Counted from the stretch's first letter, positions 11,593 to 54,368 are shown. The stretch: 64,000 bases of DNA from Parcubacteria bacterium C7867-004 (GCA_001189075.1 LFCN01000006.1:237219-301218); one strand, 5' to 3'. Numbers and translations are program-made. The notes: generated by a model not told the origin, from the sequence alone.

Positions 11593-11901
11593 ATGGATTC
11601 AGATATGCAGAGCAAGTCGCACGTTATTCCCGTAGTTATCGGTATCATCGTTCTTGTACTCATCGGCGGTGTCGCGTACGCCATGATGAATAAGGAGGCG
11701 ATGATGATGGAGAAGAAGGACGCCATGATGGAGGAGAAGAAGATGGAAGGCGAGGGAAAGATGATGGAAGAGAACAAGATGATGGAGAACGGATCTTCCT
11801 CGGACACTATGATGAAGGGCGAGACGATGATGAAAGCCGATGATTCAGGAATGATGATGAAGGCTGAGTCAGGTGCGATGATGGACACCCCGACGAACTA
11901 A
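11593..11901 (+). CDS. membrane-anchored methionine-rich low-complexity protein
   Basis: One TM helix, then ~70 residues containing ~28 Met in MMxxKK / MMEE repeats. Confidence 0.6.
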   Translation: MDSDMQSKSHVIPVVIGIIVLVLIGGVAYAMMNKEAMMMEKKDAMMEEKKMEGEGKMMEENKMMENGSSSDTMMKGETMMKADDSGMMMKAESGAMMDTPTN

Positions 11902-11906
11902 GCTCG

Positions 11907-12617: not shown

Positions 12618-12620
12618 CTT

Positions 12621-13733
12621 ATGACTGTACGGAATGCCGTAACACTCGCCATCGTCATCGCACTCATTGCGGGCGCGATTTGGTACCTGGAGTCGCTGAA
12701 GCCGAAGACCGTGAGCGTCGATAGGAACGAGAACAGTGTCGAGCACGCGACCACTACCGAGACCGCCGACTACGCGGTCCGGGTAAAGAACTTTCCTCTC
12801 GCGCAGGAACTCGTCGCTCCCGACGGATACCTCAACACCGGCGACAAGCCGATAACCATCGCATCACTTGTCGGGAAGAAGGTCATTCTCGTCGACTTCT
12901 GGACGTACAGCTGTATCAACTGCCAGCGCACGCAGCCATATCTGAACGCCTGGTACGAGAAGTACGCGGACGAAGGTCTCGAGATAATCGGAGTGCATAC
13001 GCCGGAGTTCGACTTCGAGAAGGTGAAGGAGAACGTCGCGCAAGCGGTGGCGAGAGATGGGATAAAGTACCCGGTCGTGCAGGATAATGCGTACGCTACC
13101 TGGAACGCGTATCAGAACCGTTTCTGGCCTCATAAGTACTTGATCGATATCAACGGCCTCATCGTCTATGACCACATCGGCGAAGGCGCGTACGACGAGA
13201 CCGAGCGTGAGATTCAGAAAGCCCTTGCCGAACGCAAGCAGGTCCTGGGGGAAGCAGGCTCAATATCGACGGGTATCGTGGCGCCGAGCGAAACCCCGCG
13301 AGCGGGAAGCGCCGAGACGTACTTCGGGTACGATCGTAACGAATTCCTTGGAAACGGCCGCGCGGGGTCGGCGGGCATGCAGACGCTTACTCGTCCAGAA
13401 AAGGTATTACCGAACGTGCTGTACATGACCGGTGCCTGGAACTTCACGAAAGAGTACGCGGAGAGCGCAAGCGCTTCTTCGATTATCTATTCGTATGACG
13501 CGAAGCAGGTGTTCTTCGTCGCTGAAAGCACAGAAGGTACTACCATAACAGTCTTGCGCGACGGAGTGCCCGTAGCAGCTGAGAAAGGAGCTGATGTAGA
13601 CGCCTCAGGAAGGGTGCTTGTGAAGGAGGCACGCCTCTACAAGCTCATCAATGAGAAAGAGCGCGGCACGCACACTATCGAGATCAAGGTAGAGGGGGCA
13701 GGTCTCAAGGCCTTCACCTTCACGTTCGGCTAA
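12621..13733 (+). CDS. TlpA/ResA-like thiol-disulfide oxidoreductase with extra C-terminal domain
   Basis: TM anchor. WTYSCINCQ is a CxxC thioredoxin fold (ILVDFWTYSCINC...GVHTPEF). ~170-aa β-rich C-terminal extension. Confidence 0.8.
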   Translation: MTVRNAVTLAIVIALIAGAIWYLESLKPKTVSVDRNENSVEHATTTETADYAVRVKNFPLAQELVAPDGYLNTGDKPITIASLVGKKVILVDFWTYSCINCQRTQPYLNAWYEKYADEGLEIIGVHTPEFDFEKVKENVAQAVARDGIKYPVVQDNAYATWNAYQNRFWPHKYLIDINGLIVYDHIGEGAYDETEREIQKALAERKQVLGEAGSISTGIVAPSETPRAGSAETYFGYDRNEFLGNGRAGSAGMQTLTRPEKVLPNVLYMTGAWNFTKEYAESASASSIIYSYDAKQVFFVAESTEGTTITVLRDGVPVAAEKGADVDASGRVLVKEARLYKLINEKERGTHTIEIKVEGAGLKAFTFTFG

Positions 13734-16389: not shown

Positions 16390-16435
16390 AACAAATGAAA
16401 CGGCCCGCATTGCGGGCCGTTTCATTTGTTCTATA
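16390..16435. terminator. bidirectional intrinsic terminator
   Basis: GAACAAATGAAACGGCCCGCattGCGGGCCGTTTCATTTGTTC long perfect hairpin between convergent genes. Confidence 0.7.
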
Positions 16436-19400: not shown

Positions 19401-19529
19401 TATCTGGATCTCCGGAGATGACTCCTTCGGGATAGTTGCCGCAGCGACAACGCCGGCCGCGATAAGCACTACCGCGAGCAGTATCGTGAAGTGGTGCTTA
19501 TTGATGAAGAAGGTCCAGAACTTAGTCAT
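16431..19529 (-). CDS. RND family efflux transporter permease (AcrB/HAE1-like)
   Basis: 1032 aa with 12 TM helices and two large periplasmic loops. Typical RND length and architecture. Confidence 0.9.
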   Translation of the reverse strand: MTKFWTFFINKHHFTILLAVVLIAAGVVAAATIPKESSPEIQIPVGIVTTVLPGASSEDVERLITDKVEDRVLGIENVSKVTSTSGDGVSNVTVEFNASADIDKSIQLLKDEVEKVRPELPGEAEDPSVSDVNFADQPIIIASISGELAPAELTALGETVKDELERIPGVSEVALSGVREREVSVIVEQSKLRQYNLSLSDVTNAIRSSGLASPLGSITVNDISYAVRLEAGLSDPDRVGSIALAGPGGTPLHIRDVAKVVNGLADARTYSRVSVEGAPSAPALGISVFKSRGGNVVTTGNQVKEKLEELKATTLAGTKIVISYDAPKDVNHDLTELTRTGLETVALVMLMLFLTLGWRESIAAAISIPLSFLIAFIGIQASGNTINFISLFSLILAIGILVDSGIVIVEAIHTRFVEYGDKKKAAVTAIKEYAWPLFAGTFTTIAVFVPLFFLSGIVGQFLASIPFTVIFVLLASIFVALGFVPLFSMYIIRPTLSPLEIRQEEYNERAKAWYEKFLRGILGDRKKESRFLIGITVLLFVVLTLPALGLVKVVFFPGEDVDLVYVEIEKPQGTSLSETDLAVREVEELLYADDRIASFVTEVGAGSSFAASGLGGSRAANISVNLKEKRKQTSAEIVEDLRTELGSITSARVTVSEPEGGPPSGAAVSTTFSGDDLGALATAVAQAERILADIPGTTNITTSTKDDSAEFVVNLDTAKASELGVSTLAVADLLRTALYGTEATSIRTGDDDIEVRTKLDLNPGYRDPSETNETTIDAVRSLTVNGINGPVPLSSIATISYEPANTVIRHEDGERIATLSAEAAKGGNPIQITNEFQKQMKNIQLPEGVVVKQGGESEDVNKSFLELILALVGGAALMLAILVLEFNSFRHSLYLLSIIPFSLIGVFIGLMLTGSPLSLTSMLGVIALAGVIINHAIILMDSVARIGRQNPDQSLTDVVVAAASSRFRPIVLTTVVTVVGMIPLSFASAIWGPLAFAIMFGLAFSMVLTLVLIPVLYHRWPGKDVRERYKEL

Positions 19530-19537
19530 GTAGCGAA

Positions 19538-21076
19538 TTAGCGCACCGAGGCTGCGGACTGCGTCTTAACGAGCTCGCCTTCGGAGAGGCCGCGTGCATC
19601 GGTGACGATCCTGAGATCGCCGGGAAGCTCGGAGAGTATCTCGATACGGTCGCCGCGTACTTCGCCTACTTCGACGGGGCGCGCGACGAGACGGGAATCA
19701 GCATCGACCGTAAAGATGATGCGATCACCGGCGCGGAGCTTCACGGAAGCGAGTGGAAGGAGCGCAGGACCTGCGGCCGCAACAACGGTTGTCTGGGGAG
19801 CGAGGTCAGGAAGCGCGATATGCACGGACTGGCCGTTCACGAGATCGTTCGCACCCGTTACGGCGACGTGCACTTCGATTTGCTTGTTGGTGGGATCGAG
19901 CGCTGGAGCGATCGAGGTGATGATGCCGTCACTCTTGCCTTCGACGGTAACCTTGGTGCCCGCAGCAAGGAGATCACGGTCGCCTTCAGAGACGTATGCG
20001 ACGATCTCGAGCGCGCCGTTCTGAGCTACGGTAGCGACGTGCATGAGGTTGGTGACGTAATCGCCGACGCGTATCGGAAGGAAGTTCACCTGTCCTGCGA
20101 TAGGCGCACGGATAACCGTCTTCTCGAGGTTCGCTTGTGCGGCACGAAGCGATCCCAGCGCCTGCTTCACGGACGCGTCAGCGCTCGCGGACGCACCCAC
20201 GCTTCCTGCGCGGTATCCGCTGCGGGCGGCCTGTAGCGACGCGATCACTCCGTCGACGCTCGCGCGTGCAGCGACGAGTGCCGCTGACTGCGTTTCGGTA
20301 GTGCGGGAGTCGCGGCCGTTAGCGGCAACTGCGAGGCGGGCCATGAACGTCGCTACCTGGCGCGCGATCGATTCAGCTTCCTCAAGAAGCGCGAGCGGGT
20401 CACGGGAACCGGCACTTCCAAGCTTCGCGGCATACGCTTCCATGAGTCCGTCGATTCGCTCGCGTTCGCGGGAAAGATTGTCCGCTTCTGCTGCATTGCT
20501 CGCGAGGATAAGGAGATCGGGACCGACCGGCTTCGGGTCGCCGAAGAATTGGTCTACCTGCGTCTCGAGCGCGGTATCGAGGGTGGTGTAGGCGGCGCGA
20601 TATTCCGCAACTGCTTCATCCTTCGTGTCGGGAAGCGACTGCGCGGAGCGGGCGGCGACCGCTGCGTCGTAGGCGCCTTCGGCCTGAAGCACGCTCGCAC
20701 GCTCGGCTGCGTTCTCGAGGCTCGCGATTATGGAACCGGCTGCGACGAATCCGCCGAGCTGGACGTTAACGGCACGGACGGTACCACCGTTCTGGGCGAG
20801 GAGATCCGCCTCGGTGACGCTGCGCACGGTGCCGATGAGATCCACGACACTTCCGGTACCGGAGAGTTCTCCAATGGACGCGAGGGTGACGGTGCGGCTC
20901 TGGTCAGCAGTCTCTTCAGGCTTCGCCGACGTGAGAAGGAAGATTAGTCCGGCGATAGCTGCGGCGAGCACGAGTGCCATAGCGATGCGCTGCCACAGAG
21001 GACGGGCGACATACCACTTCCAAGAGTGGCGTGCTCGAGCGGGTAGAGTATTGAAAAATGCGCGTACGCGCTTCAT
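19538..21076 (-). CDS. efflux RND periplasmic adaptor (HlyD/MFP family)
   Basis: N-terminal TM, coiled-coil hairpin and a β-barrel region (TVIRAPIAGQV). Immediately upstream of the RND gene. Confidence 0.8.
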   Translation of the reverse strand: MKRVRAFFNTLPARARHSWKWYVARPLWQRIAMALVLAAAIAGLIFLLTSAKPEETADQSRTVTLASIGELSGTGSVVDLIGTVRSVTEADLLAQNGGTVRAVNVQLGGFVAAGSIIASLENAAERASVLQAEGAYDAAVAARSAQSLPDTKDEAVAEYRAAYTTLDTALETQVDQFFGDPKPVGPDLLILASNAAEADNLSRERERIDGLMEAYAAKLGSAGSRDPLALLEEAESIARQVATFMARLAVAANGRDSRTTETQSAALVAARASVDGVIASLQAARSGYRAGSVGASASADASVKQALGSLRAAQANLEKTVIRAPIAGQVNFLPIRVGDYVTNLMHVATVAQNGALEIVAYVSEGDRDLLAAGTKVTVEGKSDGIITSIAPALDPTNKQIEVHVAVTGANDLVNGQSVHIALPDLAPQTTVVAAAGPALLPLASVKLRAGDRIIFTVDADSRLVARPVEVGEVRGDRIEILSELPGDLRIVTDARGLSEGELVKTQSAASVR

Positions 21077-21186
21077 GAGGACGGCTGGTTTCATATGTAT
21101 TTACTACACTATTTTATCAGTAATGTCAATTTGTAGGCCGTCTCAGAAGGAAGAAGATGCGGAGGCGAAGTGGTATCCTTATATCC

Positions 21187-41914: not shown

Positions 41915-42688
41915 ATGAAGGTCAAGCCGGTAAGCATAGTCATCCCTACGCTTAACGAGGAACAGTATCTGCCGCGCCTGCTTGAATCCCTAGTAAGCGT
42001 CACGAGCCCACTCGATATCATCGTGGTCGACGGCGCATCGGAGGACGGGACCGTCCACGTCGTCGAGCGATTCTCATCATCGTTCCAAAGAGACTCTTCA
42101 CTCACCTTGATACAAAGTCCGGAGCGGGGAATATCCCTCCAGCGCAACAAGGGAGCCGAACAGGCAACGCATGACATTCTGATTTTCTGCGATGCCGACA
42201 TTGTCTTTCCTTCAGACGAGGTATTCCAAAGGATCGTTACTGAATTGGTAGAAAAGAAGTATGCGGTAGCGGCTCCACTACTTCGACCCATTGAGTCCGG
42301 GAATGATCTGAAACGCTTGTATCATATTCTTACCCTCATGCAGAAGTTGCTACTCTTCTTCGGTCGGCCGTTTTTCGCCGGCTCATGCCTGCTTACCTCA
42401 AAGGACGTGTTCAAGCGCGCGGGAGGATTCGATGAGACTATCATGCTCGGAGAAGATGTCGATTATTCGATTCGGGCAGCAAAACTCGGACGTGCCGGTC
42501 TGGTGCATATCGAGCTACCGGTCTCAGCTAGACGAGCAATCAAGTATGGATATAAGTGGCTTCTCTCCGAACTTCCAAATCTTTTCAGATTTCTTCTAAC
42601 CGGCAAATTGAAATCGGAAACCATCTACTATCCGTTCGGGGAATACGGAGGCCAGAAGCCGCATCATGTAACGCGAAATACGGGTTGA
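41915..42688 (+). CDS. family 2 glycosyltransferase
   Basis: VSIVIPTLNEE...VVDGASEDGT...CDAD with DxD. Confidence 0.8.
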   Translation: MKVKPVSIVIPTLNEEQYLPRLLESLVSVTSPLDIIVVDGASEDGTVHVVERFSSSFQRDSSLTLIQSPERGISLQRNKGAEQATHDILIFCDADIVFPSDEVFQRIVTELVEKKYAVAAPLLRPIESGNDLKRLYHILTLMQKLLLFFGRPFFAGSCLLTSKDVFKRAGGFDETIMLGEDVDYSIRAAKLGRAGLVHIELPVSARRAIKYGYKWLLSELPNLFRFLLTGKLKSETIYYPFGEYGGQKPHHVTRNTG

Positions 42689-42719
42689 TAGAGTTCCTTC
42701 CGTATAGAAAGAGAACGCG

Positions 42720-43070
42720 CTATTTCCGCAGGATCTTCTCCATCGCTTTTCCTTTCGCGAGCTCATCGATGAGCTTGTCGAGATAGCGGATCTCGCGCAT
42801 GGTTGGCTCCTGTATGTCTTCTACACGGATGCCGCACACTACGCCCGTTATCAATTTCCTCGAGGGATTGAGCTTCGGCGCTGTAGCGAAGAAGGTCTCC
42901 AGGTCGGTGCCTTTCTTCAATTGGGATTCTAGTTTCTTAGGCGTGTAGCCGGTCATCCAGCGGATGATCTCATTCACTTCAGCTTTCGTCCGACCTTTCC
43001 GCTCCGCCTTGGCGATATAGAGCGGGTAGACTCGCGCGAAGCTCATCGTATAGATCCGGTGTTTGTCCAT
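42720..43070 (-). CDS. DUF2200 family protein
   Basis: 116 aa. ...[22 protein letters not shown]... is typical of DUF2200. Confidence 0.5.
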
Positions 43071-43147
43071 GGTGCCTTACTTTGTATACGCAAGGCTACC
43101 ACGACTTAGACTAGGGACCGGTCCGGGCCTCTGCTAGGATAGATCCG

Positions 43148-43471
43148 ATGAAGAACCTATCAGCACTCCTTCTCCCGCTGCTGCTGATAGCCATACTCGC
43201 ATTCGGCGGCATCCTGCACGCAACGCTTCCGCATTCCCATACGGGAACCGCGATGATGACGGACCTAATGCATACCGTGACGAGCACCGCCTCAAAGGAG
43301 CTGTTCGCGTTCGTGCAGCTTGCAATTCCGTTCCTGTTCATTCTGGCTGTCTCGCTCGCCAGGCTTCTTCCTGCGAGCCACTTCTCGCTTTATGCGATAC
43401 GGGCCTCATCGCGCGATACCAGCATCCAAGCGCTCAGGCGGGGCATCGTGCACTATCGACGCTTCCTCTAG
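43148..43471 (+). CDS. small membrane protein with His/Met-rich loop
   Basis: Two TM helices flank HATLPHSHTGTAMMTDLMH. Confidence 0.4.
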   Translation: MKNLSALLLPLLLIAILAFGGILHATLPHSHTGTAMMTDLMHTVTSTASKELFAFVQLAIPFLFILAVSLARLLPASHFSLYAIRASSRDTSIQALRRGIVHYRRFL

Positions 43472-43518
43472 TTTGCACTCGTATTCCTTTTACTGGGGTT
43501 CGAGTATCACAATCTAAG

Positions 43519-44196
43519 ATGAAGTATCTATTCGCGTTCGCACTGGCATTGTCTCTCGTAGTCATGCCGGTTTCAGTCAGTGCTCACGAGGTGCAGCAGT
43601 TCGAGATAAATGGTGAGCACTATGAATTCGTCGTTGGTTCGCTTAACGAGCCAGTTACCGTGGATGACAAAACGGGTGTGTACCTGCATGTCCGGGAAGT
43701 CGGCCATGTCGCAGGCGGGGAAGCTGACCACCATGCTGCCGCCGGAGCGCTCGCCGGTCTCGAAGAGACGCTCCAGGTAGAGATCTCAGCGGGTACTGAG
43801 AAGAAGGTGCTCGCGCTCTCGCCGATACATGATGAGCCGGGCGCATACCGCGCTTCCTTCTATCCGACTGTCGCGACCACGTACTCGTATCGCTTCTTCG
43901 GCACGATAGAGGAGACCCCAGTGGACCTCGCCTTCACTTGCAGCCAGGCGGGTCACGCAGTAGCCGAAGAGGACACGAAGGAAGTAGTCCTCTCTGAAGG
44001 TGTGACTCGCATCAGCAAGACGGGCGCGTTCGGTTGCCCGGCTCCAAAGGAAGATCTTGGATTCCCTGAACCAGCCGTAACCATGACCAGTCTCAGGGAT
44101 GATGTCGCGAAGGCGAACACACTCGCTACGGGAGCGATGGGCGTCGCCGTCCTTGCGATCCTCGGCATGGCCTATATCGCAATGCGCAAGAAATAA
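43519..44196 (+). CDS. YcnI-like (DUF1775) secreted copper-binding protein with C-terminal TM anchor
   Basis: Signal peptide. Predicted mature N-terminus begins with His (SA|HEVQ). C-terminal TM. Sits directly upstream of the CopC-CopD gene, as in the Bacillus ycn locus. Confidence 0.5.
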   Translation: MKYLFAFALALSLVVMPVSVSAHEVQQFEINGEHYEFVVGSLNEPVTVDDKTGVYLHVREVGHVAGGEADHHAAAGALAGLEETLQVEISAGTEKKVLALSPIHDEPGAYRASFYPTVATTYSYRFFGTIEETPVDLAFTCSQAGHAVAEEDTKEVVLSEGVTRISKTGAFGCPAPKEDLGFPEPAVTMTSLRDDVAKANTLATGAMGVAVLAILGMAYIAMRKK

Positions 44197-44252
44197 TCGA
44201 GCGTTTGCTCGCGGGGTCTCGGTACTCGGGACCTCGCCGCAAGTCCTTGCAT

Positions 44253-47003
44253 ATGAAACTACTACTCACATCGATACTCGTAGCTTTCGCATTCATCGTT
44301 CTGCCGATGGAAGCATCTGCGCATGCTTCGCCGATAGACTATGCGCCGAAGTCGTCCGCGGGCCTTACGGAAGCTCCCTCAGAGATTAGTATCAGATTCA
44401 GCGAGCGGCTCGAGCCGGGCGCAAGCCGCATCGTTGTCACGGACAGCTCCGGCGCGCGATTATCTACGGGGAATGCCACGGTCGATCCGAGTGATCCTCG
44501 TGTCCTTACGCTCGCTATTCCGCAAAGCAGGGAAGGCACCTTCATTGTTACCTGGAGTGTCGTGTCTTCGGACGACGGGCACTTTACGAAAGGCGGCTAT
44601 ACGTACTTCGTAGGGCAGGAAGACGTGGTAGGGAGTACCACCCCTCAAGTGGAAGTGGTGCAGCTTTCGGCGCTTCCTGAAGCCTCAGCGATATTCGTCG
44701 AACTCTTGGGGAATTCATTCCTGCTCGGCGCCCTATTCCTGTTCGCGTTTTGCATACGCAGGGTGCTTCCGGGCTTTTCCGAGCGGGAACGCTCTGCTAT
44801 CTCGCGGGTATATCTGTCCTTCGTTGCTGTCGGCATCGTATTCGTACTTGGCGGCGGAATATCGCATGTGCTACTTAAGACCCTTGAGCTCGCGAGCCTG
44901 CACGAGATACCGATAGGCGAAGCATTCCCGCTCTATACCGCAACGGTGGCAGGTTCCGCGACGATAGGAAGGGCGCTCGTTGCTCTATCGTTCGGCGTCC
45001 TGTTCCTCTTCCGGCGCCGGATCATCCTGCAGGCTTCAAAGCTCACCCTCTCTGAGGTCGCTCTGTTCCTGCTGCTCTGCGTGTTCGCGTATCTTCGCGC
45101 GAAGGTAAGTCATGCAACCGCTAACCCCTTCTTCCCGGAGCTATCCGTCCTCGTTAATTTCGTGCATCTCATCGGCAAGGATGCCTGGGCCGGCATGTTG
45201 GGCGTTCTCTCCGTGATGCTTCTGGTCCCGACGCTCCGCGCGCACCTTCCCGAACTGCTCCCAAAAGCATTCAAGCTCATGTTGGGAGCCGCCGCGCTTG
45301 TTGCGATAAGCGCCACATATATCGTATGGCTCCATCTCAAGGACTTCTCGAATCTTTCCTCGACGCTCTGGGGCGAGCGATTCGTTCCGCTTGCGATTAC
45401 CGCCCTACTTGCGGTCGGATTACTCACGTACCACGTCCTGAGTAATCGCTTCCGACCGGCGCTATTCAGCCGTTTCCTTGCGTACACACTCCCTGCAGAA
45501 TTCGCAGCCGGCGTACTCGTAGTCTTCTTCTCAAGCCTTCTCATCATCACGTCTCCGCCGCTCGAGATGTCTCGAGGACAAGTATTCAGGGTGAGCGATC
45601 AGGGTATTAAGATCGAGTTTCAGGCGTCGCCGTACGAAGACGAGGCGGGGCTGATAACCGTCACGAGCAAAACGGGAAGCGCTCTCAATCAGCCGACGGC
45701 ATTCCTCGGGACCAATAGCGAAGAGGGGGTACTCCTGGCACTCAAGAAACGCTTCGATGGAGGATACGCGTTCCCGCTCGCACTGCTTCCGCTTGATAAC
45801 CCGAGCACGCTTACCGTAAACGTGTCCCAAGAAGGCGGATATGACGCTCGCGCGAGCTTCAGCGTCTCGCGCGCCAGCCTCATACCGAGCGCCGGGCCGC
45901 CACGCAGCCTGGATGCGTTCACGCTCGTCATGATCGCTGTCGCGGCCGCCGCCGTCATCTTCCTCGTGCTGCTGTATAGGACTTCATCCGCAACGTATCC
46001 CGCGATCGGCAAGCATGCGTGGTTCGCTCCGATACTCGGCATCTTGCTCTTAATCTTTATTTCGAGCCAGCTCATTGCTGGAGCGAAGCTTCTGTTCGGA
46101 AACTCGTATAAGAAGGAGTGTCTGTCAGACGGCAACGCCTGGCACCTCATGCTTCCGTCCAAGGATTCGATACCGCAGTCCTCCATCCCGAGAGAAGGAT
46201 GCATGGCACTCGGCGGCGCGTTCCATATCGCGGACAGCCGCGAATACCAGTACCTGAAGTCTCCCGGAGAGTCGAACGTACACTTCGCGCATGAGCTGAC
46301 CGATCTGCAGGCCGGCATTCCGGTCGATATCGAGTTATCTATCGTCGACGAGGAAGGAAAGGATGCGCTCCTCTCGCTCGTGCATGAGCGTCTCGTGCAC
46401 GCCATGATAACGAGCAAGGACATGAAAGAATTCTGGCACGTGCATCCTGAGCGCCAGGAAGACGGAAGCTTCATCCTTCCATTCACATTCCCGCGCTCGG
46501 GAGAATATCTGCTCGCGCTCGATTACACGAACGGGCTCTCTTCGGTGACCGAGACGTTTCCTCTGGCGGTAGCGGGTTCGATTCCTCAAGATCCTCAGCC
46601 TGCTCTCTATCCGTCGCCCGAAAAGATAGATAACTATGAGATCCGCCTCGAGCACTCGCTGCTGTTCGTAGGCCGAAAAGAAACGTTTACGTACCGCATA
46701 ACGCGCAACGGGGAAGACGTTACCGATCTTGCGCCGTATCTGGGGGCCGCGATGCATCTGGCGGTGGTAAAGAACGATCTCTCCGCGTTCATCCATACGC
46801 ATGGGGAAGTGCATCCGTTCGGTACCGTGACCAAACCGCTCCCGACAAGTACGGTGCATCAGCATGCGCCGCCGCCCGCCCGGTTCGGACCCGTAGTAGA
46901 GGCGCACGTCACGTTCCCGAGTCCCGGCACCTACACGATATTCGGCGAATTCAGCCATGAGAGCGTGGTCCGAACCTCATCATTCACCGTTACGGTCGAG
47001 TAA
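44253..47003 (+). CDS. CopC-CopD fusion (YcnJ-like) copper transport protein with extended C-terminal His-rich domains
   Basis: Signal peptide, SA|HASPIDY...VVSSDDGH CopC domain, ~8 TM CopD region, YtkA-like segment, two more TM helices, then a duplicated WHVHPE / IHTHGEVHP domain. Confidence 0.8.
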   Translation: MKLLLTSILVAFAFIVLPMEASAHASPIDYAPKSSAGLTEAPSEISIRFSERLEPGASRIVVTDSSGARLSTGNATVDPSDPRVLTLAIPQSREGTFIVTWSVVSSDDGHFTKGGYTYFVGQEDVVGSTTPQVEVVQLSALPEASAIFVELLGNSFLLGALFLFAFCIRRVLPGFSERERSAISRVYLSFVAVGIVFVLGGGISHVLLKTLELASLHEIPIGEAFPLYTATVAGSATIGRALVALSFGVLFLFRRRIILQASKLTLSEVALFLLLCVFAYLRAKVSHATANPFFPELSVLVNFVHLIGKDAWAGMLGVLSVMLLVPTLRAHLPELLPKAFKLMLGAAALVAISATYIVWLHLKDFSNLSSTLWGERFVPLAITALLAVGLLTYHVLSNRFRPALFSRFLAYTLPAEFAAGVLVVFFSSLLIITSPPLEMSRGQVFRVSDQGIKIEFQASPYEDEAGLITVTSKTGSALNQPTAFLGTNSEEGVLLALKKRFDGGYAFPLALLPLDNPSTLTVNVSQEGGYDARASFSVSRASLIPSAGPPRSLDAFTLVMIAVAAAAVIFLVLLYRTSSATYPAIGKHAWFAPILGILLLIFISSQLIAGAKLLFGNSYKKECLSDGNAWHLMLPSKDSIPQSSIPREGCMALGGAFHIADSREYQYLKSPGESNVHFAHELTDLQAGIPVDIELSIVDEEGKDALLSLVHERLVHAMITSKDMKEFWHVHPERQEDGSFILPFTFPRSGEYLLALDYTNGLSSVTETFPLAVAGSIPQDPQPALYPSPEKIDNYEIRLEHSLLFVGRKETFTYRITRNGEDVTDLAPYLGAAMHLAVVKNDLSAFIHTHGEVHPFGTVTKPLPTSTVHQHAPPPARFGPVVEAHVTFPSPGTYTIFGEFSHESVVRTSSFTVTVE

Positions 47004-47037
47004 CGCTATGCAGTACGCGCACATATTTCGGTAGGGT

Positions 47038-47619
47038 ATGATACCAGTCATGACACTCGACCAATTCTCAGCTCTGCTCTCGATCGGATTACTCGCGATA
47101 AGTGGTACCGTGCTTATCGGTACGGTGCTGTATTTCCTCGTCCCATCGGTGCGAAGGCACGTAGAGCGGCATACCTATCGGCAGTTCATCGCTGTTCTCG
47201 GACTTCTGTCTGCTGCGTCAATCGTCGGCGCGCTGATCTACCAGCTCGCGTATCTCACCCCGGTCTGCGAACTCTGCTGGTGGCAGCGTATCTTCCTCTT
47301 CCCGATAAGCGTGATCGCGGGTGTCGCGTACTGGTACAAGACTAAGGAAGCACATATCACCATCGGCATACTCGCGCTCTTCGGTCTCTTCTACGCTTCC
47401 TACCATTACTACTACCACTTCCAGGGCCTCGTCCTCGGCAACACGCTCGCGCTGCCATGCTCGTCGGGCGGTCTCCTGCCGGCCTGTACTGACTCGCCGA
47501 TACTGACGTTCGGGTTCGTAACCATCCCGCTCATGGGAATCCTAGTATTCGGCAGCATGCTCATACTCGCTGCATTCGCCCATGTGGCGGCAAAACGGGA
47601 GCAAAGGACAGGTGTGTAG
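47038..47619 (+). CDS. DsbB-family disulfide oxidoreductase (BdbC-like)
   Basis: Four TM helices. CELC in the first loop. C...C (CSSGGLLPAC) in the second loop. Confidence 0.6.
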   Translation: MIPVMTLDQFSALLSIGLLAISGTVLIGTVLYFLVPSVRRHVERHTYRQFIAVLGLLSAASIVGALIYQLAYLTPVCELCWWQRIFLFPISVIAGVAYWYKTKEAHITIGILALFGLFYASYHYYYHFQGLVLGNTLALPCSSGGLLPACTDSPILTFGFVTIPLMGILVFGSMLILAAFAHVAAKREQRTGV

Positions 47620-47640
47620 AAATTGCTATACTCTTCCCAT

Positions 47641-48291
47641 ATGACAACGAAATCAATGCTATGGACGGGCGGGATTGTGATCGTAGTTCTCGGGTTCGCG
47701 TTCGCGCTCTCCCTGCTCGGTACGAAGCCTGCGGCAGGCGTTGCGATCCCGCTTCCGCCGGTCACCGCTGACGATCACGTCAAAGGAGCGGAGAACGGCA
47801 GGGTCACGGTCGTCGAGTATCTCGATCTCGAATGCGCTGCCTGCGCCGCGTACTATCCGCTCGTGAAGCAGATGGAAGAGGAGTTCGGGGACCGCGTAAC
47901 CTTCGTCGTACGCTATTTCCCGCTCCAGGGCCACATCAACGGGTATCCTGCAGCGCTCGCAGCAGAGGCTGCGAGCCGCCAGGGAAAGTTCTGGGAAATG
48001 CACGATCTTCTGTTCGAGAACCAGAAGGAGTGGGGAGGAAAGCAGTCGGCTACTCCTGAAGTCTTTGAAACCTATGCACAGAAAATCGGCCTCAATATGG
48101 AGCAGTTCAAGACGGATTTCGCGTCCGAGAGCGTGAAGGAGCGTGTCGAACGAAACAAGACGGAGGCCCGGGACCTGAAGCTCAACGGCACGCCGTCGTT
48201 CTTCCTCCAGGGGCTGCAAATCGCGAGCCCGCCGTCACCTGAAGCTTTCCGTGCGCTTATCCAGGCAGAGCTTGATCGCACTGCGTCATAA
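47641..48291 (+). CDS. DsbA-family thiol:disulfide oxidoreductase
   Basis: TM anchor and a thioredoxin fold with the CAAC active site (LECAACAAY). Confidence 0.8.
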   Translation: MTTKSMLWTGGIVIVVLGFAFALSLLGTKPAAGVAIPLPPVTADDHVKGAENGRVTVVEYLDLECAACAAYYPLVKQMEEEFGDRVTFVVRYFPLQGHINGYPAALAAEAASRQGKFWEMHDLLFENQKEWGGKQSATPEVFETYAQKIGLNMEQFKTDFASESVKERVERNKTEARDLKLNGTPSFFLQGLQIASPPSPEAFRALIQAELDRTAS

Positions 48292-48312
48292 CTGACCCTA
48301 CTACCTATATCT

Positions 48313-49041
48313 ATGGAACACGAACCAACCCCAAAGGCCGCATCAAACGTTGCGCTCACGACCCCGGTCGCGATACTTATCGGTTCGCTGATAATTGCCG
48401 GAGCGATACTCATAACCAAGTACGCGCCTAATCCGCTTGGAGGAGTAGCGGCTCAAGCGGAAGAGAAAGTGAATCTTGAGGCGATGCGTCCGGTTACCGC
48501 TGAAGATCACATCCGTGGCAATCCCGACGCGCCGGTAAAGATAGTCGCGTATTCCGATACCGAGTGCCCGTTCTGCAAGCGTTTCCATGACACCATGATG
48601 GAGGTTATGGCCACCTATGGCGCAGAGGGGAAAGTAGCGTGGGTATATCGCCATTTCCCGCTCGATCAGCTCCATCAGAGCGCACGCGCAGAAGCGGTCG
48701 CTACCGAATGTGCGGCAGAGCAGGGAGGCGATGAGGTGTTCTGGAAGTACGTCGACCGGATGATGGAGATAACCCCTTCGAACGACGGGCTCGATCCCAG
48801 CGAGCTTCCGAAGATCGCCGCATTCGTCGGACTCGACGTCACCGCATTCAATGCCTGCGTCTCGTCTGACAAGTACGCAAAGAAGATCCAGGACGATATT
48901 GATAACGCGGTGGAAACGGGCGGACGGGGAACGCCGTGGAGCATCATCGTCGGCGCGGACGGCAAGCAGTACCCGCTCTCAGGCGCGCAGCCGATCACGG
49001 CAATCAACAAGCTCGTCGATGTCGCACTCGCCGGTACATAA
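48313..49041 (+). CDS. DsbA-family thiol:disulfide oxidoreductase
   Basis: TM anchor and the CPFC active site (TECPFCKRF). Confidence 0.8.
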   Translation: MEHEPTPKAASNVALTTPVAILIGSLIIAGAILITKYAPNPLGGVAAQAEEKVNLEAMRPVTAEDHIRGNPDAPVKIVAYSDTECPFCKRFHDTMMEVMATYGAEGKVAWVYRHFPLDQLHQSARAEAVATECAAEQGGDEVFWKYVDRMMEITPSNDGLDPSELPKIAAFVGLDVTAFNACVSSDKYAKKIQDDIDNAVETGGRGTPWSIIVGADGKQYPLSGAQPITAINKLVDVALAGT

Positions 49042-49045
49042 TCGG

Positions 49046-49579
49046 ATGCTCGGCACCCTGCGAACGGTGTTCAAGGAAGCCAGGAGCACGAGCATAGCAA
49101 TTGCCGCGATGCTGGTGCTTTTCGCTATCGTGGCCTTCTTCCCGAACCTCGGCGTGCTCGGACCCGTGTTCGCGTCCGCGGCGCCAGTTGGAGAGAAAGC
49201 CGCATTCCTATTCTCCCTGCTCGGCTCTCCCGCGGAGAATGCAACCGGGTTCGGGTTCGCACTGCTTCTTATAAGCGTATTCCTGTCGGGTCTGGTTATA
49301 GCACTCGCAGCTTTTGCGTTACGTAAGCGCGCGCAGGATGTGAGCGCCATGGGCGTGTCAGGGCTCGGTATGCTCTCTGCCTTCGTTGGTATCGGATGCG
49401 CCTCCTGCGGATCGCTCGTGCTGTCCGCTCTCATCCCAATAATCGGCGCAGGGGCGTTCGCGACGCTGCTGCCGCTCGGGGGCCTCGAGTTCAGTATCCT
49501 CGGGATTCTGCTTCTGCTGATCTCGGGATATGTACTCGTACGCAAGATTGAACGGTCCGGCGTGTGTGCTATCGCGTAA
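49046..49579 (+). CDS. polytopic membrane protein with CxxC
   Basis: Four or five TM helices. GCASCGS at the membrane edge. Confidence 0.45.
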   Translation: MLGTLRTVFKEARSTSIAIAAMLVLFAIVAFFPNLGVLGPVFASAAPVGEKAAFLFSLLGSPAENATGFGFALLLISVFLSGLVIALAAFALRKRAQDVSAMGVSGLGMLSAFVGIGCASCGSLVLSALIPIIGAGAFATLLPLGGLEFSILGILLLLISGYVLVRKIERSGVCAIA

Positions 49580-49583
49580 TACT

Positions 49584-50174
49584 ATGACCATTCGATTGGA
49601 ACGGTTCCTAGTCCCCGTAGTCCTGCTGCTTGCGGTGTGTCTCCTGCCGCAGGGCGTACAGGCGCACGGGGAGGGCGTGCTTCCGTTCACGGCTACCACG
49701 ACCGAGGGCTATATCATCGATGTCGATTACGGCGGTCTCAAGATAGAGTCCGATGTCTCGGGCACTTTCACCTTCAATCTCTTTAAGGACGCGGCGCGTA
49801 CAGAGGAGGCGGTCTTTAAGGACCTATGGGTCCGCATCGTCGAAGAGGATGGGAGCGAGCATGGTCGTACGATATTCGCGGGACCGATAGCCCGCCCGGT
49901 ATTCGGACAGCTCAGCTTCTTGTACGTATTCCAGCATGCGGGGAAGTATTCGCTCGTAGTTCGGTATAACCAGGAGGAGACAGGAAGCATCTATGATCAG
50001 AAGAAGATTGAAGCAACCTTCCCGCTTGAAGTGTATCCACGGGCAGCTACAGGATGGTTCTCGGTCTCCTCTGAATTCCTTATGGGAGGCGCGGCGGGCG
50101 CCTTGAGCGTGCTGCTGCTTGGCTTACTCATGCACGTGATACGACGCAAGCGGTCAGGCAAGCGTGCTCTATGA
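49584..50174 (+). CDS. secreted protein with mature N-terminal His and C-terminal TM anchor
   Basis: Signal peptide ...GVQA|HGEGV, β-rich body and a C-terminal TM plus basic tail. Same architecture as the YcnI-like gene. Confidence 0.45.
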   Translation: MTIRLERFLVPVVLLLAVCLLPQGVQAHGEGVLPFTATTTEGYIIDVDYGGLKIESDVSGTFTFNLFKDAARTEEAVFKDLWVRIVEEDGSEHGRTIFAGPIARPVFGQLSFLYVFQHAGKYSLVVRYNQEETGSIYDQKKIEATFPLEVYPRAATGWFSVSSEFLMGGAAGALSVLLLGLLMHVIRRKRSGKRAL

Positions 50175-50713
50175 AGAGGAATCTTTTAATCCTTGCCGCG
50201 CTTGTACTCGTCGCTCTAGCGGGTATCGCGTTGTGTCACTATTTCGCAAGGGAGGATAGTGCGCTCTCGAGTGACGTCGCGGGCGTACCGTTCATCATGC
50301 GAGGCGAGTTCGTAACGCTTCATGGCGGAGTCGCGGAAGACGTTACGGGACCTGACGGGATATCTAAAACAGTCGTGCGCTATTTCGGCAATGAGGTGCG
50401 GCATGACATCGACGGAGACGGTACCGATGATGTTGTCTTCCTCATCACGCAGGAAACGGGAAGCAGCATGTATTTCTATGCGGTAGGAGCGCTCAAGCGA
50501 GACAAGGGATATCAGGGAACGGCGGCAGTTATGCTCGGAGAAGGTATTGCACCTCAGACTACGGAAAAAGGAGAAGGACGGTCGGTCGTGGTGAACTATG
50601 CTGAGAAGACTGCGGATTCGACCTCGATCAACAAGAGCATCCATCTAGTGCTCGATACGAAACGCCTTGAGTTCGGCGAGCTGGTCCAGGGCTTCGAAGG
50701 AGAGGAGCGGTAA
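50171..50713 (+). CDS. secreted hypothetical protein
   Basis: Signal/TM region, then a β-rich domain. 4-nt overlap with the upstream gene. Confidence 0.4.
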   Translation: MKRNLLILAALVLVALAGIALCHYFAREDSALSSDVAGVPFIMRGEFVTLHGGVAEDVTGPDGISKTVVRYFGNEVRHDIDGDGTDDVVFLITQETGSSMYFYAVGALKRDKGYQGTAAVMLGEGIAPQTTEKGEGRSVVVNYAEKTADSTSINKSIHLVLDTKRLEFGELVQGFEGEER

Positions 50714-50764
50714 GTACGAAAGGCCATCCTAGGATGGCCTTCGGGTGGCGGGAGAGAAAGAGAG

Positions 50765-51016
50765 TCAGGGCTCCTGGATGGGGGTCACGTGCGGGAGAAC
50801 GAACGGCTCTTGAGAGAGCGGTATGGTTCCAGCAGATGCGGCGAGGTCGGTAGCTACGGTAGCTGAGACGAATGCGCCATGCAGGAACGCGACTACGGTC
50901 TTTTCTCCTTCGGAAAGGACGGCGGGAGCGAGGAATTTGAGGACGATGATAAGCACACCGAGACCGATAGCTTGCAAGATAGGCATAACGGAGAAGGTGA
51001 ATGGTAAGTCGAACAA
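50765..51016 (-). CDS. possible small membrane protein
   Basis: 83-aa ORF with two hydrophobic segments. Weak support. Confidence 0.25.
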   Translation of the reverse strand: MFDLPFTFSVMPILQAIGLGVLIIVLKFLAPAVLSEGEKTVVAFLHGAFVSATVATDLAASAGTIPLSQEPFVLPHVTPIQEP

Positions 51017-51152
51017 GAATATATCTTGCCGACGAGACAGCGAGGCCGTCTCGTATCATCGTCTTTCAAGGTGCTTGCCCCTCTATCAGCTAGAACCAGC
51101 AGTTATATGGAAGGTTTCAGCTGAACCGGTCTCGGCGGTATACTGTACGCAT

Positions 51153-51632
51153 ATGGAGACCAAAACAGAGCAGGCTATATTCGCCGCGGGGTGTTTCTGG
51201 GGCGTCGAGGCGGCGTTTCTCGCCGTCCCTGGAGTTACGGATGCCGAGAGTGGGTACACGGGAGGACATACGCAGAACCCAACCTATGGCGAGGTATGCA
51301 CCGATACAACCGGGCATGCCGAGGCCGTGCGGGTCACGTTCGATCCAGAAACGGTATCCTTCGAGACACTCGTACGAAAGTTCTTCACGTTGCACGATCC
51401 GACGCAGGTAAATCGACAAGGACCGGATGTGGGAAGCCAGTATCGTTCCGGCGTGTTCTACCTTTCTGACGAGCAAAAAGAGGTCGCGGAAAAGGTGAAG
51501 AGCGAGTATGCGCAGAAACTTGCGCCAAAGGCGGTCGCCACCGAAGTAACCAAGGCGTCAGAATTCTTCCGCGCGGAAGAATACCATCAGCGGTATTTCG
51601 AGAAGCATCCTTCGGCTACCTGCCACATATAG
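51153..51632 (+). CDS. msrA: peptide methionine sulfoxide reductase MsrA
   Basis: GCFWGVE active-site motif. ...HDPTQVNRQG...YHQ... Confidence 0.9.
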   Translation: METKTEQAIFAAGCFWGVEAAFLAVPGVTDAESGYTGGHTQNPTYGEVCTDTTGHAEAVRVTFDPETVSFETLVRKFFTLHDPTQVNRQGPDVGSQYRSGVFYLSDEQKEVAEKVKSEYAQKLAPKAVATEVTKASEFFRAEEYHQRYFEKHPSATCHI

Positions 51633-51716
51633 GACTTCATACGGCGCTCATCGTCGGAAGGGTACAAGAGTATGCGGAGCGATCGCTCCGCATTTCTCGT
51701 AACTTCTTTTCTGACA

Positions 51717-52193
51717 ATGGACCCAATAGAAATAATCAAGAACGACCATCGAACCGTCGAGGCGTTGTTCTCTGAGTACGAATCGCTTGGCGATCGTGCA
51801 TACGAAGGGAAGCAGCGCATCGTCGACCAGCTCATCAAGGAACTCACGCTCCACGCCGAGATGGAGGAGACCATCGCGTACCCGGCATTCATGGAAGCTT
51901 TCACCAAAGAAGACGACAAGATGGTTGCGGAAGCGTATATCGAACATACGGGCGCCAAGCGCCTCATGGAGGATCTCCAAGGGCTCTCTCCCGAAGACAT
52001 AGAATTTGATGCAACCGTGAAAGTGCTCAAGGAGAACATCGAACATCACGTGAAGGAGGAAGAGGAGGAGTTGCTTCCGACGGCCGAAAAAGAGGTGCCG
52101 GAAGACGTGCTCGAGGAGATCGGGAAGGACATGATGGCGTTCAAGGATGCTGCGGCTGACGAAGAAGAAGACGCAGAATTGGAAGCGCTTTAA
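51717..52193 (+). CDS. hemerythrin HHE cation-binding domain protein
   Basis: DHRTVEALF...HAEMEE...IEHH...HHVKEEEEE gives an H...H...E pattern. Acidic tail. Confidence 0.7.
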   Translation: MDPIEIIKNDHRTVEALFSEYESLGDRAYEGKQRIVDQLIKELTLHAEMEETIAYPAFMEAFTKEDDKMVAEAYIEHTGAKRLMEDLQGLSPEDIEFDATVKVLKENIEHHVKEEEEELLPTAEKEVPEDVLEEIGKDMMAFKDAAADEEEDAELEAL

Positions 52194-52212
52194 TCCTAGA
52201 AACGAGAACAAA

Positions 52213-52243
52213 AAACGCGCCTTGAGGGGCGCGTTTTTGATTG
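52213..52243. terminator. bidirectional intrinsic terminator
   Basis: AAAAACGCGCCttgagGGGCGCGTTTTT between convergent genes. Confidence 0.7.
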
Positions 52244-52244
52244 C

Positions 52245-52652
52245 TTATTTCTGAGCGTCCTCTTGCTCGAAGCCGAGGCACACCGAGTTGATGCAATACC
52301 GCTTGCCGCCGGCATCTTTTGGACCGTCATCGAAGACGTGTCCCAGATGGCCTCCGCAGGTCTTGCAGTACACTTCCGTGCGATGCATCCCAAGCGAGCT
52401 ATCGTCGCGTGTGCCTACGTTTGCTGCTACGGCAGGGTCGGTGAAGGAGGGCCAGCCGCTCCCAGAATCGAACTTCTTTTCGGACGAGAACAGCGCAGAC
52501 CCACAGGCGCGGCAGGTATACATGCCGGTCTCATGGTTATTCACGAATTTCCCCGTGAACGGGGCTTCGGTACCTGCTTCGCGTAGGACGCGGTATTCCT
52601 CAGGGCTCAGCTCGTTCTTCCACTCCTCTTCGGTCTTGGTGACGGGTTCCAT
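52245..52652 (-). CDS. msrB: peptide methionine sulfoxide reductase MsrB
   Basis: Two CxxC zinc pairs (CRAC...CKTC), GWPSF and RYCINS catalytic Cys. Start at MEPVTK. The upstream ORF extension is rejected. Confidence 0.9.
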   Translation of the reverse strand: MEPVTKTEEEWKNELSPEEYRVLREAGTEAPFTGKFVNNHETGMYTCRACGSALFSSEKKFDSGSGWPSFTDPAVAANVGTRDDSSLGMHRTEVYCKTCGGHLGHVFDDGPKDAGGKRYCINSVCLGFEQEDAQK

Positions 52653-52718
52653 ATAGGAAAAGTATAGCAGGGAGGGTAAATCTTGACTCAGGGGGCATTG
52701 TGATACCATAGGCCTATT

Positions 52719-53888
52719 ATGAAGCGCCTCGGTATATTCGCGGCCGTACTCCTTATGGGAGCGATACCGCTTCAGGCGGCGGCGGCTACTTTGCTCAGCA
52801 ATCGTACGCTCGTCGTATCCGAGGCACCTCCCGGGAACGCCTATCTCACCGGAACCGATATCACGGTGACGGTCCCGCTCCCAGCTGACGTTGCGGCCTT
52901 CGGAGGCACTCTCACGCTCTCGGCTCCCGTTATGGGCGACGCACTGCTTGTCGGGGGTACGGTGCTTGCGAGCAAGGCAGTAGCGGGAGATCTGCGTGCT
53001 GCCGGAGCGCAGATAACGGTCACCGGTCCTGTAACCGGCGATTTGATGCTCGCGGGAGGCTCGGTCGTTGCGTCGACCTCCGCAAGCGACGTGCATATCA
53101 TCGGCGGGAACGTGCAGCTTACCGGTAGCGGCGGACCAGTCACCATCTATGGCGCCGACGTCATACTTTCAGGCGAGTTTGATGGCGACGTCGCTATCGT
53201 CGCCTCGGACAGCGTTACGCTCGGCGAGGGCACTGTAATCCATGGCGCGCTCAAGTACGATGCGCCGCAGCAGGCGGGAATCCCGGTATCTGCAGTCATC
53301 GATAACGGCGTCAACTACACCGGTGCCGCGACCTATCTCCCGACGGTCGAGCAGGCGGAAACGTTTGCGATAGCCGGTGCGGGAGTTCTCTACGTCGTGA
53401 AGATCATCGCGCTCCTGATAGCGGCAGGGCTTCTCGCCGGTCTCTTCCCGCTCTTTACCCAGACGGTAGCTGATCGCGCCATAGCGCGTACGCCCGGCCG
53501 GTTCATACTGCTTGCGCTTCTCGGGTTTGCTATCGTTATCGCGACACCCGTCCTCATCTTCCTGCTCCTCATCTCGTTCGTAGGCATGGCGGTGGCGTTC
53601 ATGCTCGCCGCTTCCTATGCGCTCCTGCTTTTGCTCGGGTACGTGTACGCGGGCATCATCGCCGGAAGCGCGCTCTCGCGCGGCGTGCTCAAGCGCACTG
53701 ACGTGAGTTGGAAGATAGCGTTGCTCGGCATGCTCGTGCTCTCGGTTATCGGCGCTATCCCGGTCTTCGGCGCCCTCGTGATATTCATACTCTTCCTGGC
53801 CGCTACCGGCGCCATCGTCTCGATCGGCTACACGTTCGCATTCGGCAAACAGGACGTCGATGATCTTGCGGACCTTTCCGTTGAGTAG
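52719..53888 (+). CDS. membrane protein with N-terminal β-helical repeat domain (bactofilin/DUF4097-like)
   Basis: Signal peptide, ~200 aa of repeating GxxVxVxGxVxGD units, then four TM helices. Confidence 0.45.
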   Translation: MKRLGIFAAVLLMGAIPLQAAAATLLSNRTLVVSEAPPGNAYLTGTDITVTVPLPADVAAFGGTLTLSAPVMGDALLVGGTVLASKAVAGDLRAAGAQITVTGPVTGDLMLAGGSVVASTSASDVHIIGGNVQLTGSGGPVTIYGADVILSGEFDGDVAIVASDSVTLGEGTVIHGALKYDAPQQAGIPVSAVIDNGVNYTGAATYLPTVEQAETFAIAGAGVLYVVKIIALLIAAGLLAGLFPLFTQTVADRAIARTPGRFILLALLGFAIVIATPVLIFLLLISFVGMAVAFMLAASYALLLLLGYVYAGIIAGSALSRGVLKRTDVSWKIALLGMLVLSVIGAIPVFGALVIFILFLAATGAIVSIGYTFAFGKQDVDDLADLSVE

Positions 53889-53894
53889 CCGGAT

Positions 53895-54368
53895 ATGAGT
53901 TCGATGCCGCAGGTTGGAGACATCGCCCCAGATTTCACGCTTCCCGATCAAGACGGCGGCATGCACGCGCTCTCGAGTTATCGGGGCAAGAACATTCTCC
54001 TGTATTTCTATCCGAAAGATGATACGCCCGGCTGCACGAAGGAGGCCTGCGCCATCCGGGATGCTGAACCCGACTTCTCAAAGCTCAATGCGGTTGTGCT
54101 CGGGGTATCTGCGGACTCGGTGAAGAGTCATAAGAAGTTCTCCGAGAAGTACGGTCTCGCATTCACGCTCCTGGCTGACGAAGGGAAGGAGGTAGTGAAT
54201 CTCTACGGCGTATGGGGCCGGAAGAAGATGATGGGACGCGAATATGACGGCGTGTTCCGCACTTCCTTCCTCATCGGCCCGGATGGGCGCATCAAGCGAG
54301 TGTATGAAAAAGTGAAGCCGGAACTGCATGCGGCTGACGTGCTCGCTGATCTTAACGGGCATGCCTGA
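53895..54368 (+). CDS. bcp: thiol peroxidase Bcp (peroxiredoxin Q)
   Basis: [15 protein letters not shown] gives the peroxidatic Cys and the resolving Cys five residues apart. Confidence 0.85.

Follow-up and report, generated by a model that had tools for sequence, protein, structure and literature searches.

Bacterial recognition and acquisition of extracellular copper are poorly understood, and work on the closest described systems, YcnJ/YcnI of Bacillus subtilis and YobA/YebZ of Escherichia coli, dates only from 2021–2026. YcnJ, encoded in ycnKJI, carries a CopC domain, a CopD membrane domain and an extracellular beta domain in that order (PMC12362106, PMC13344008). His24 and His110 of the CopC domain form a histidine brace which binds Cu(II) and is essential, and Cu(II) exchanges with YcnI (PMC12362106); His295 is the conserved CopD histidine (PMC13344008). 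In the E. coli YobA-YebZ-YebY (AZY) system, an eight-helix CopD protein (family PF05425) has two partners, a CopC-type Cu(II) protein and another small copper protein with a modulating role, and two outer-face histidines of YebZ, His135 and His154, lie 19 residues apart and are needed for copper-specific uptake (PMC11923076). Here we describe a related locus at positions 43148–47003 of a 64,000-nucleotide stretch (the window) from Parcubacteria bacterium C7867-004 (GCA_001189075.1, LFCN01000006.1:237219-301218). This uncultured organism comes from an aquifer, and its genome is about 0.78 Mb (PMC4508563).

The original prediction, made from the window alone, described a three-gene locus mirroring the Bacillus ycn locus on a much larger scale. 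All three open reading frames (ORFs) were found on the plus strand, and the locus is indeed of the copper type, built around a YcnJ-like CopC-CopD fusion. Gene A (43148–43471) encodes a 107-residue two-helix membrane protein, gene B (43519–44196) a 225-residue cell-surface protein and gene C (44253–47003) the fusion. A further plus-strand gene, H (49584–50174; 196 residues), lies 2.5 kb downstream of C. Contig DGYM01000008.1 matches the window, and protein B is identical to a C7867-004 protein. The YcnJ-like core is already known and is labelled CopC in databases, whereas the obligate orphan partner B, the linked proteins H and A, and a tandem His-triad module with two added helices are new; we found no paper describing this architecture in Patescibacteria. 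With modest confidence, we favor the interpretation that the locus encodes an extracytoplasmic copper capture-and-relay system feeding a CopD-type permease, an enlarged relative of the YcnJ/YcnI and YobA/YebZ uptake systems. That the system involves copper in some way is, in our judgment, quite likely.

The fusion protein had been put at 917 residues. From the ATG at 44253, the position at which aligned homologues also begin, it is 916 residues, or 932 from an alternative TTG start at 44205. The public gene call for C (P0001, 898 residues, on DGYM01000008.1 of assembly GCA_002398375.1) begins 19 codons after this ATG, at MEASAHASP, and so loses the signal peptide (window 44205–44310). About 60 full-length relatives were found, with 28–57% identity. 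Residues 1–23 (44253–44321, plus strand as for all of C) are the signal peptide, which ends in A-S-A, and A23, H24 and A25 are each at least 90% conserved. The CopC domain follows at residues 24–122 (44322–44618) and is of the Cu(II)-only type (C0-1 class). It was the only domain detected in C by direct Pfam and NCBIfam scans, in which A, B and H had no match. The CopC model (PF04234) matched residues 24–119 (E 2.1e-16, 61.1 bits against a cut-off of 23.3) as well as all 37 relatives of C that were scanned, and the best match in the PDB was the YcnJ CopC domain, 9c14_A (E 6.7e-15). The ligand set consists of His24-Ala25, Glu51 and Asp108-Gly-His110, with D107, D108, G109 and H110 invariant in the aligned family. 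Thus, the brace histidines occupy positions identical to those of YcnJ, 24 and 110. Because residues 24–122 contain no methionine, a Met-rich Cu(I) site is absent.

Residues 146–436 (44688–45560) form the CopD-type membrane domain of eight helices, visible as eight hydrophobic segments (146–434) with a positive-inside pattern. The C lineage is so divergent from the rest of the CopD family that the window protein gave no match to the Pfam CopD model (PF05425) at E≤0.1 or even at E≤1. By profile comparison, the membrane region is nevertheless homologous to CopD, as predicted: hhalign of the C family against canonical CopC-CopD proteins, a set of which two re-scanned members (P0069 and P0075) score 62–71 bits on PF05425, gave a probability of 97.1% (E 5.4e-11, 199 columns), and PF05425 was matched by 9 of the 37 relatives (best E 1.2e-7). 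Similar to YcnJ, the domain has conserved histidines. H287, within SHATANPF, is invariant and H305 is kept in 97% of the family; they lie 18 residues apart, in a loop and a helix end on the predicted outer face, a spacing close to that of the YebZ pair. Both align with histidines of the canonical metagenomic CopC-CopD set, and they can be read as likely counterparts of YebZ His135/His154 and YcnJ His295. His361 and His394 are conserved as well.

The protein was said to continue past CopD into a beta domain, two further helices and duplicated His-rich domains, and the AlphaFold2 (AF2) model of residues 436–916 agrees, showing a beta-sandwich, two helices, a small Cys-pair subdomain and two immunoglobulin (Ig)-like domains (predicted local distance difference test score, pLDDT, 92.9). 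C is ∼375 residues longer than YcnJ, the additions being the two helices, the disulfide subdomain and two His-triad domains, and the positive-inside pattern would place every beta domain of C outside the membrane. Directly after CopD, an extracytoplasmic beta-sandwich spans residues 438–552 (45564–45908), with strands at model residues 10–103 and pLDDT >90. It sits where YcnJ has its YtkA domain and has no conserved histidine. Comparison with the post-CopD YtkA/FixH domain of canonical fusions gave a weak hhalign score (21.5%, E 0.001). We also considered it as a third copy of the His-rich domain and rejected this, there being no hhalign similarity to the C-terminal domains. A YtkA-like domain had been predicted at this position; the beta domain is there, and the Pfam YtkA signal falls instead in the duplicated C-terminal domains. 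The YtkA model (PF13115) had no match in the window protein but was matched by 14 of 37 full-length relatives (best E 5.7e-6), with the Filamin and PKD models matching the same stretch, and all of these matches map to the two C-terminal domains. A stand-alone relative, P0211, passes the YtkA threshold (37.1 bits against 25.9, E 5e-9).

The two extra transmembrane helices (residues 555–612; 45915–46088) form a hairpin returning the chain to the outside, with hydrophobic segments at 557–575 and 592–610 and AF2 helices at model residues 120–143 and 156–180. The small subdomain that follows (613–672; 46089–46268) has invariant Cys623 and Cys650, a conserved Trp630-His631-x-Met633 and Met651; it is found in the stand-alone modules of Patescibacteria and is missing from the Actinobacteria and Paenibacillus relatives. 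The first His-triad YtkA-like Ig domain (673–790; 46269–46622) carries H711, H716 and H729-x-H731-P. The second (791–916; 46623–47000) carries PYLGAxxH835 and H848-x-H850, of which H835, H848 and H850 are invariant in the aligned family, together with a ∼20-residue insert bearing H854 and H869, and H885 after the insert. The two are a true duplication, with their His motifs in register (hhalign of 672–790 against 791–916, 97.3%, E 1.7e-11). As Ig-like, extracytoplasmic, membrane-tethered and copper-linked domains, they resemble the YtkA-like family including CtaK (PMC9145763). Unlike that family, C has a tandem pair with the fixed motifs HExxxH...HxHP and PYLGAxxH...HxH, preceded by the Cys-pair subdomain, and lacks the His/Met pattern and acidic-His tail described for CtaK (PMC9145763).

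The C-terminal module is also found as a stand-alone anchored protein of about 335 residues. A full library scan returned 2827 cluster representatives at E≤0.001, and the His motifs are kept across phyla and across all settings of the module. Fusion partners seen elsewhere are CopD without CopC, a plastocyanin-type cupredoxin (P0343), HMBD and DsbD_TM (P0334). Among more distant relatives, those of Paenibacillus follow csoR-copZ and one in Spirillospora is flanked by copZ and copA. Thus, domain fusions and gene neighborhoods independently indicate that the module is copper-linked. The Spirillospora protein is a 322-residue His-triad paralogue, encoded at 474–1442 of its locus (L007) between copZ and a CopA-type ATPase gene, and a second module copy (P0220) lies 3.5 kb away.

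Protein B begins with a signal peptide (residues 1–22), has His23 as its predicted mature N-terminus and carries a membrane anchor at its C-terminal end (residues about 189–224). Its AF2 model (pLDDT 91.4) is a beta-sandwich plus a C-terminal helix, and the sandwich carries a conserved Cys141/Cys173 pair and His146. Searches detected 728 relatives, and the family has no Pfam domain. B had been called YcnI-like. It does have a signal peptide, an N-terminal His, a beta-sandwich, a C-terminal anchor and an adjoining CopC-CopD gene in common with YcnI, features which do not by themselves define the YcnI family. We rejected B as a YcnI relative: DUF1775 had no match among the 50 B-family members scanned, there was no match to solved YcnI structures, and neither YcnI nor DUF1775 appears in the descriptions of the structure and sequence matches listed for B. 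Moreover, YcnI has a monohistidine brace with a conserved Glu and Trp, but no Trp occurs at any invariant or at least 90% conserved position of B, where a second conserved histidine, H146, is present instead, and B lies upstream rather than downstream of the fusion gene. Therefore, B is a YcnI analogue, alike in layout and genomic placement, and not a member of its family.

A Foldseek search with B against the PDB returned no match at E≤0.001. In structure comparison, the nearest folds are the copper proteins CrdA, P19 and CopC, and identity to CopC, PcoC, H. pylori CrdA and P19/Tp34/FtrA is 10–15%. Relatedness to CopC or to any other domain of C was rejected (hhalign <1%), as was relatedness to H, for which the hhalign value of 45% covers only 19 columns and is not meaningful. 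The conserved set of B, comprising H23, E44, D49, D50, C141/C173 and H146, is its own, unlike those of the CopC-family and P19/Tp34/FtrA beta-sandwiches, and would allow a two-histidine brace.

To place the locus in other genomes we took one genome per species, giving 77 loci from Patescibacteria (Paceibacteria-type and Peribacteria), Acidobacteriota, Ignavibacteriota, Binatia, Udaeobacter and one ‘Nanoarchaeia’ bin. In 72 of the 77, B is the gene immediately upstream of the CopC-CopD fusion gene, and the remaining five are fragmentary or truncated a short way before the fusion gene; the B-C pairing is obligate. Proteins of the C lineage fall into length classes of about 575, 670 and 900 residues, with the window protein in the commonest, full-length class. 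The arrangement B-(H)-CopC-CopD is also seen in L082, L030–L034, L052, L056, L060 and L062, which comprise several-Mb genomes of Acidobacteriota and Ignavibacteriota and one bin labelled Nanoarchaeia. Its presence in that bin may reflect mis-binning or gene transfer. Thus, a CopC-CopD core can recruit a different obligate partner, a Pfam orphan, along with a widespread tandem His-triad module. B and the module have compact soluble ectodomains and confident models, which makes them well suited to structural and metal-binding studies.

The protein at 49584 had been considered unrelated to the locus. However, H homologues were found beside or inside the operon in 32 of the 77 genomes, often between B and C, and H therefore belongs to the system. 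They follow directly after the stand-alone module in L006 and are convergent to the fusion gene in L004. H has a signal peptide, a predicted N-terminal His, a beta domain and a C-terminal anchor, and in hhalign it resembles domain 1 of C (73.9%, E 2.9e-5).

A was detected upstream of B in about 22 of the 77 loci, all of them from metagenome-assembled genomes labelled Patescibacteria. Orthologues occupy the same position in L002, L003, L004 and L006. A was described as having a His/Met loop. Its topology, derived from the positive-inside rule, has a predicted outward loop with H24, H29, H31 and H42 (motif HAxxPHxH), and the cytoplasmic tail is basic (LRRGxxxYRRF). The His part of the description holds, as all four are invariant in the four aligned orthologues; the Met part does not, the methionines not being conserved.

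Three proteins were predicted to begin with histidine immediately after an AXA-type signal-peptide end, and all three junctions are present and conserved, with cleavage placed by the -3/-1 rule and conservation and, for CopC, also by homology. The junction of C is EASA|HASP, with His24 retained in 98% of an alignment of 63 sequences (the query and 62 relatives) and aligned with residue 1 of the crystallized mature YcnJ CopC domain, 9c14_A. That of B is VSA|HEV, with His23 invariant in 50/50 aligned relatives; a signal-peptide-like region followed by His at +1 is found in 76 of the 77 loci, and the sole exception is truncated by the contig end. The H junction, VQA|HGEG, is kept in the Patescibacteria orthologues and in 17/35 overall.

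We therefore propose, as a working model for a bacterium presumed to have no outer membrane, that cleavage by signal peptidase would leave the CopC domain of C, as well as B and H, with an exposed N-terminal His. Each of these histidines could form a Cu(II) site of the histidine-brace type, the partners being Asp108 and His110 in CopC and probably His146 and/or an acidic residue in B. Cu(II) would then move from the tethered domains of B and H to CopC, which would pass copper to H287 and H305 on the outer face of CopD for transfer across the membrane. The module, held outside by the two added helices, may act as an added buffer or hand-off site. Copper binding by B, H and the module, the order of transfer and the direction of transport are thus all putative. 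Fungal Bim1/X325 proteins, which resemble lytic polysaccharide monooxygenases, offer a parallel as membrane-tethered, non-enzymatic histidine-brace proteins that assist a surface copper importer. They differ in fold family, in their eukaryotic glycosylphosphatidylinositol anchor and in having a Ctr-type rather than a CopD-type partner.

We tentatively read the direction as import because all functional results for CopD proteins agree with it, the histidines needed for uptake are kept and Fur-family regulator genes adjoin the operon in several genomes. A Fur-family regulator beside an operon is usual for uptake systems. Within 6 kb, Fur-family genes occur in 13 of the 77 loci, while CsoR, CopZ or CopA genes occur in only 4. 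Just upstream of B, Fur-family genes are found at L043 4275–4685, L076 1744–2151, L049 4466–4864, L081 421–834 and L085 5128–4724 (divergent); those listed near B come from Peribacteria and Patescibacteria genomes with no nearby ZIP gene. The Fur-family protein is thus a candidate regulator of the operon, and the window has none near the locus. Every experimentally tested CopD-family protein, namely YcnJ, YebZ and P. syringae CopCD, points to import (PMC12362106, PMC13344008, PMC11923076). The locus differs from ycnKJI in that no YcnK-type regulator lies nearby, A and H are extra partners and the host has no reported heme-copper oxidase (PMC4508563); relative to AZY, CopC is fused to CopD and the accessory proteins belong to other families.

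Several observations weigh against import. The alignment of H287 and H305 was made to the metagenomic CopC-CopD set rather than to YebZ or YcnJ themselves. The stand-alone module is found in the copper-efflux operons csoR-copZ and copZ-copA, and such operons are switched on by copper excess, not shortage. The window neighbors of the locus are envelope-redox and oxidative-stress genes (Dsb, Msr and AhpC), and we know of no copper-requiring client in C7867-004. Terminal oxidase genes are listed in only 3 of 8 C7867 genomes, and C7867-004 is not among them (PMC4508563). Finally, a Patescibacteria locus syntenic with L003 (L006 3985–6596) contains an A-like ORF, B, a stand-alone module and H with no CopC-CopD gene, which suggests that these four can work without the permease.

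A bolder idea we put forward only tentatively: A, B, the tandem His-triad module and H may constitute a self-standing, previously undescribed surface apparatus for copper relay or sequestration, independent of CopD and including two new N-terminal-His families (histidine-brace-like), an apparatus which in most lineages would have been welded onto a YcnJ-type importer. If true, its persistence in ultra-small bacteria with no known copper enzyme would point to an unrecognized copper need or defense in the Candidate Phyla Radiation.

An alternative, which we judge unlikely, is that the locus serves as surface copper defense, in the manner of the classical copABCD resistance operon. The tethered His-rich domains of B, H, CopC and the module would hold Cu(II) outside a cell with little use for copper, leaving CopD a minor part in sensing or redistribution. 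The efflux-operon modules, the permease-free locus L006 and the position of C7867-004 outside the oxidase-bearing C7867 genomes (PMC4508563) all fit this explanation, as do a CopA gene convergent to the fusion gene in L031, the public records naming C-type proteins ‘copper resistance protein CopC’, and the presence in the window of a DUF305 protein, a resistance-nodulation-division (RND) pump and stress genes. However, it runs counter to the uniform import results for tested CopD proteins, to the retention of both uptake-critical CopD histidines and to the scarcity of CsoR, CopZ and CopA genes near the locus relative to Fur-family genes. The locus raises the question of what copper is for, or how it is kept out, in reduced symbiont-like bacteria such as C7867-004.

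It is improbable that the system is a chaperone station whose YtkA-like module delivers imported or captured copper to a client cuproprotein, extracytoplasmic or in the membrane, much as CuA is served by CtaK and by the YtkA domain of YcnJ. The YcnJ domain overlaps functionally with CtaK in CuA assembly of cytochrome c oxidase (PMC13344008), the His118Tyr mutant of CtaK behaves as a null (PMC9145763), P0343 joins the module to a plastocyanin-type cupredoxin, and the Acidobacteriota with the full-length protein have several-Mb genomes and plausibly respire. In contrast, no client cuproenzyme was found in the annotated 10-kb flanks or in ten further ORFs scanned, no heme-copper oxidase is reported for C7867-004 (PMC4508563), and the module motif is His-only and lacks the His/Met pattern of CtaK (PMC9145763).

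Lastly, another divalent metal such as zinc or nickel at all-His sites, with the copper label merely inherited from the CopC/CopD names, is very improbable in view of CopC chemistry and the copper-specific partners. In its favor, His and carboxylates make up the sites in A, the module and probably B, where Cys and Met are nearly absent, several Patescibacteria have ZIP transporter, Fur-family and YibE/F genes next to the locus, and P0225 has a weak ZrgA match. Against it, the affinity of the N-terminal His brace of CopC for Cu(II) is sub-femtomolar (PMC12362106, PMC9182242), YebZ imported no Zn, Fe or Co (PMC11923076), the fusion and operon partners of the module (CsoR, CopZ, CopA, cupredoxin and CopD) are specific to copper, and the Fur-ZIP-YibE/F trio looks like a separate neighboring operon.

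In the window, A, B and C open a run of nine plus-strand ORFs with short intervals (43148–50713), in which they are followed by a DsbB-like protein, two DsbA-like proteins, a CxxC membrane protein, H and a 180-residue protein. Directly 3' of C, positions 47038–49579 encode the DsbB/VKOR-like membrane protein, the two DsbA-like thioredoxins and a membrane protein of five helices that carries a GCASCG motif and lacks a Pfam match. The conserved Cys pairs of B and C could be substrates of this disulfide-forming set. We rejected the Dsb cluster as part of the system and take it as context, since in other genomes it is not beside the fusion gene, save for one DsbB-like match in L065.

A promoter and terminator scan of 42600–51200 gave counts no higher than in shuffled sequence, and an operator search upstream of A found nothing but an imperfect long-range inverted repeat and a short palindrome. 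The latter, GGACCGGTCC, was spotted by eye and is a perfect 10-bp palindrome at 43116–43125, ∼25 bp before the A start codon, within the 77-bp gap between A and a divergent DUF2200 gene.

Further from the locus, an oxidative-stress cluster at 50823–54368 encodes MsrA, a hemerythrin-domain protein, MsrB, a DUF8173 protein and an AhpC/TSA peroxiredoxin. At 3390–3785 lies a gene for a 131-residue membrane-anchored DUF305 protein with an N-terminal stretch rich in His, Met and Asp; DUF305 is the domain of the cyanobacterial copper-binding protein CopM, and this may be a second copper-related gene in the window. Positions 11593–13733 encode a small Met-rich membrane protein (containing KEAMMMEKKDAMMEEKK), then a DsbD_TM/CcdA-type protein and then a 370-residue thioredoxin-like protein; in P0334, from another organism, the His-triad module is fused to DsbD_TM. 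On the minus strand, 16431–21094 encode a full-length AcrB-family RND pump (1032 residues) and an HlyD-type membrane-fusion protein, an unexpected find in a host presumed to have no outer membrane.

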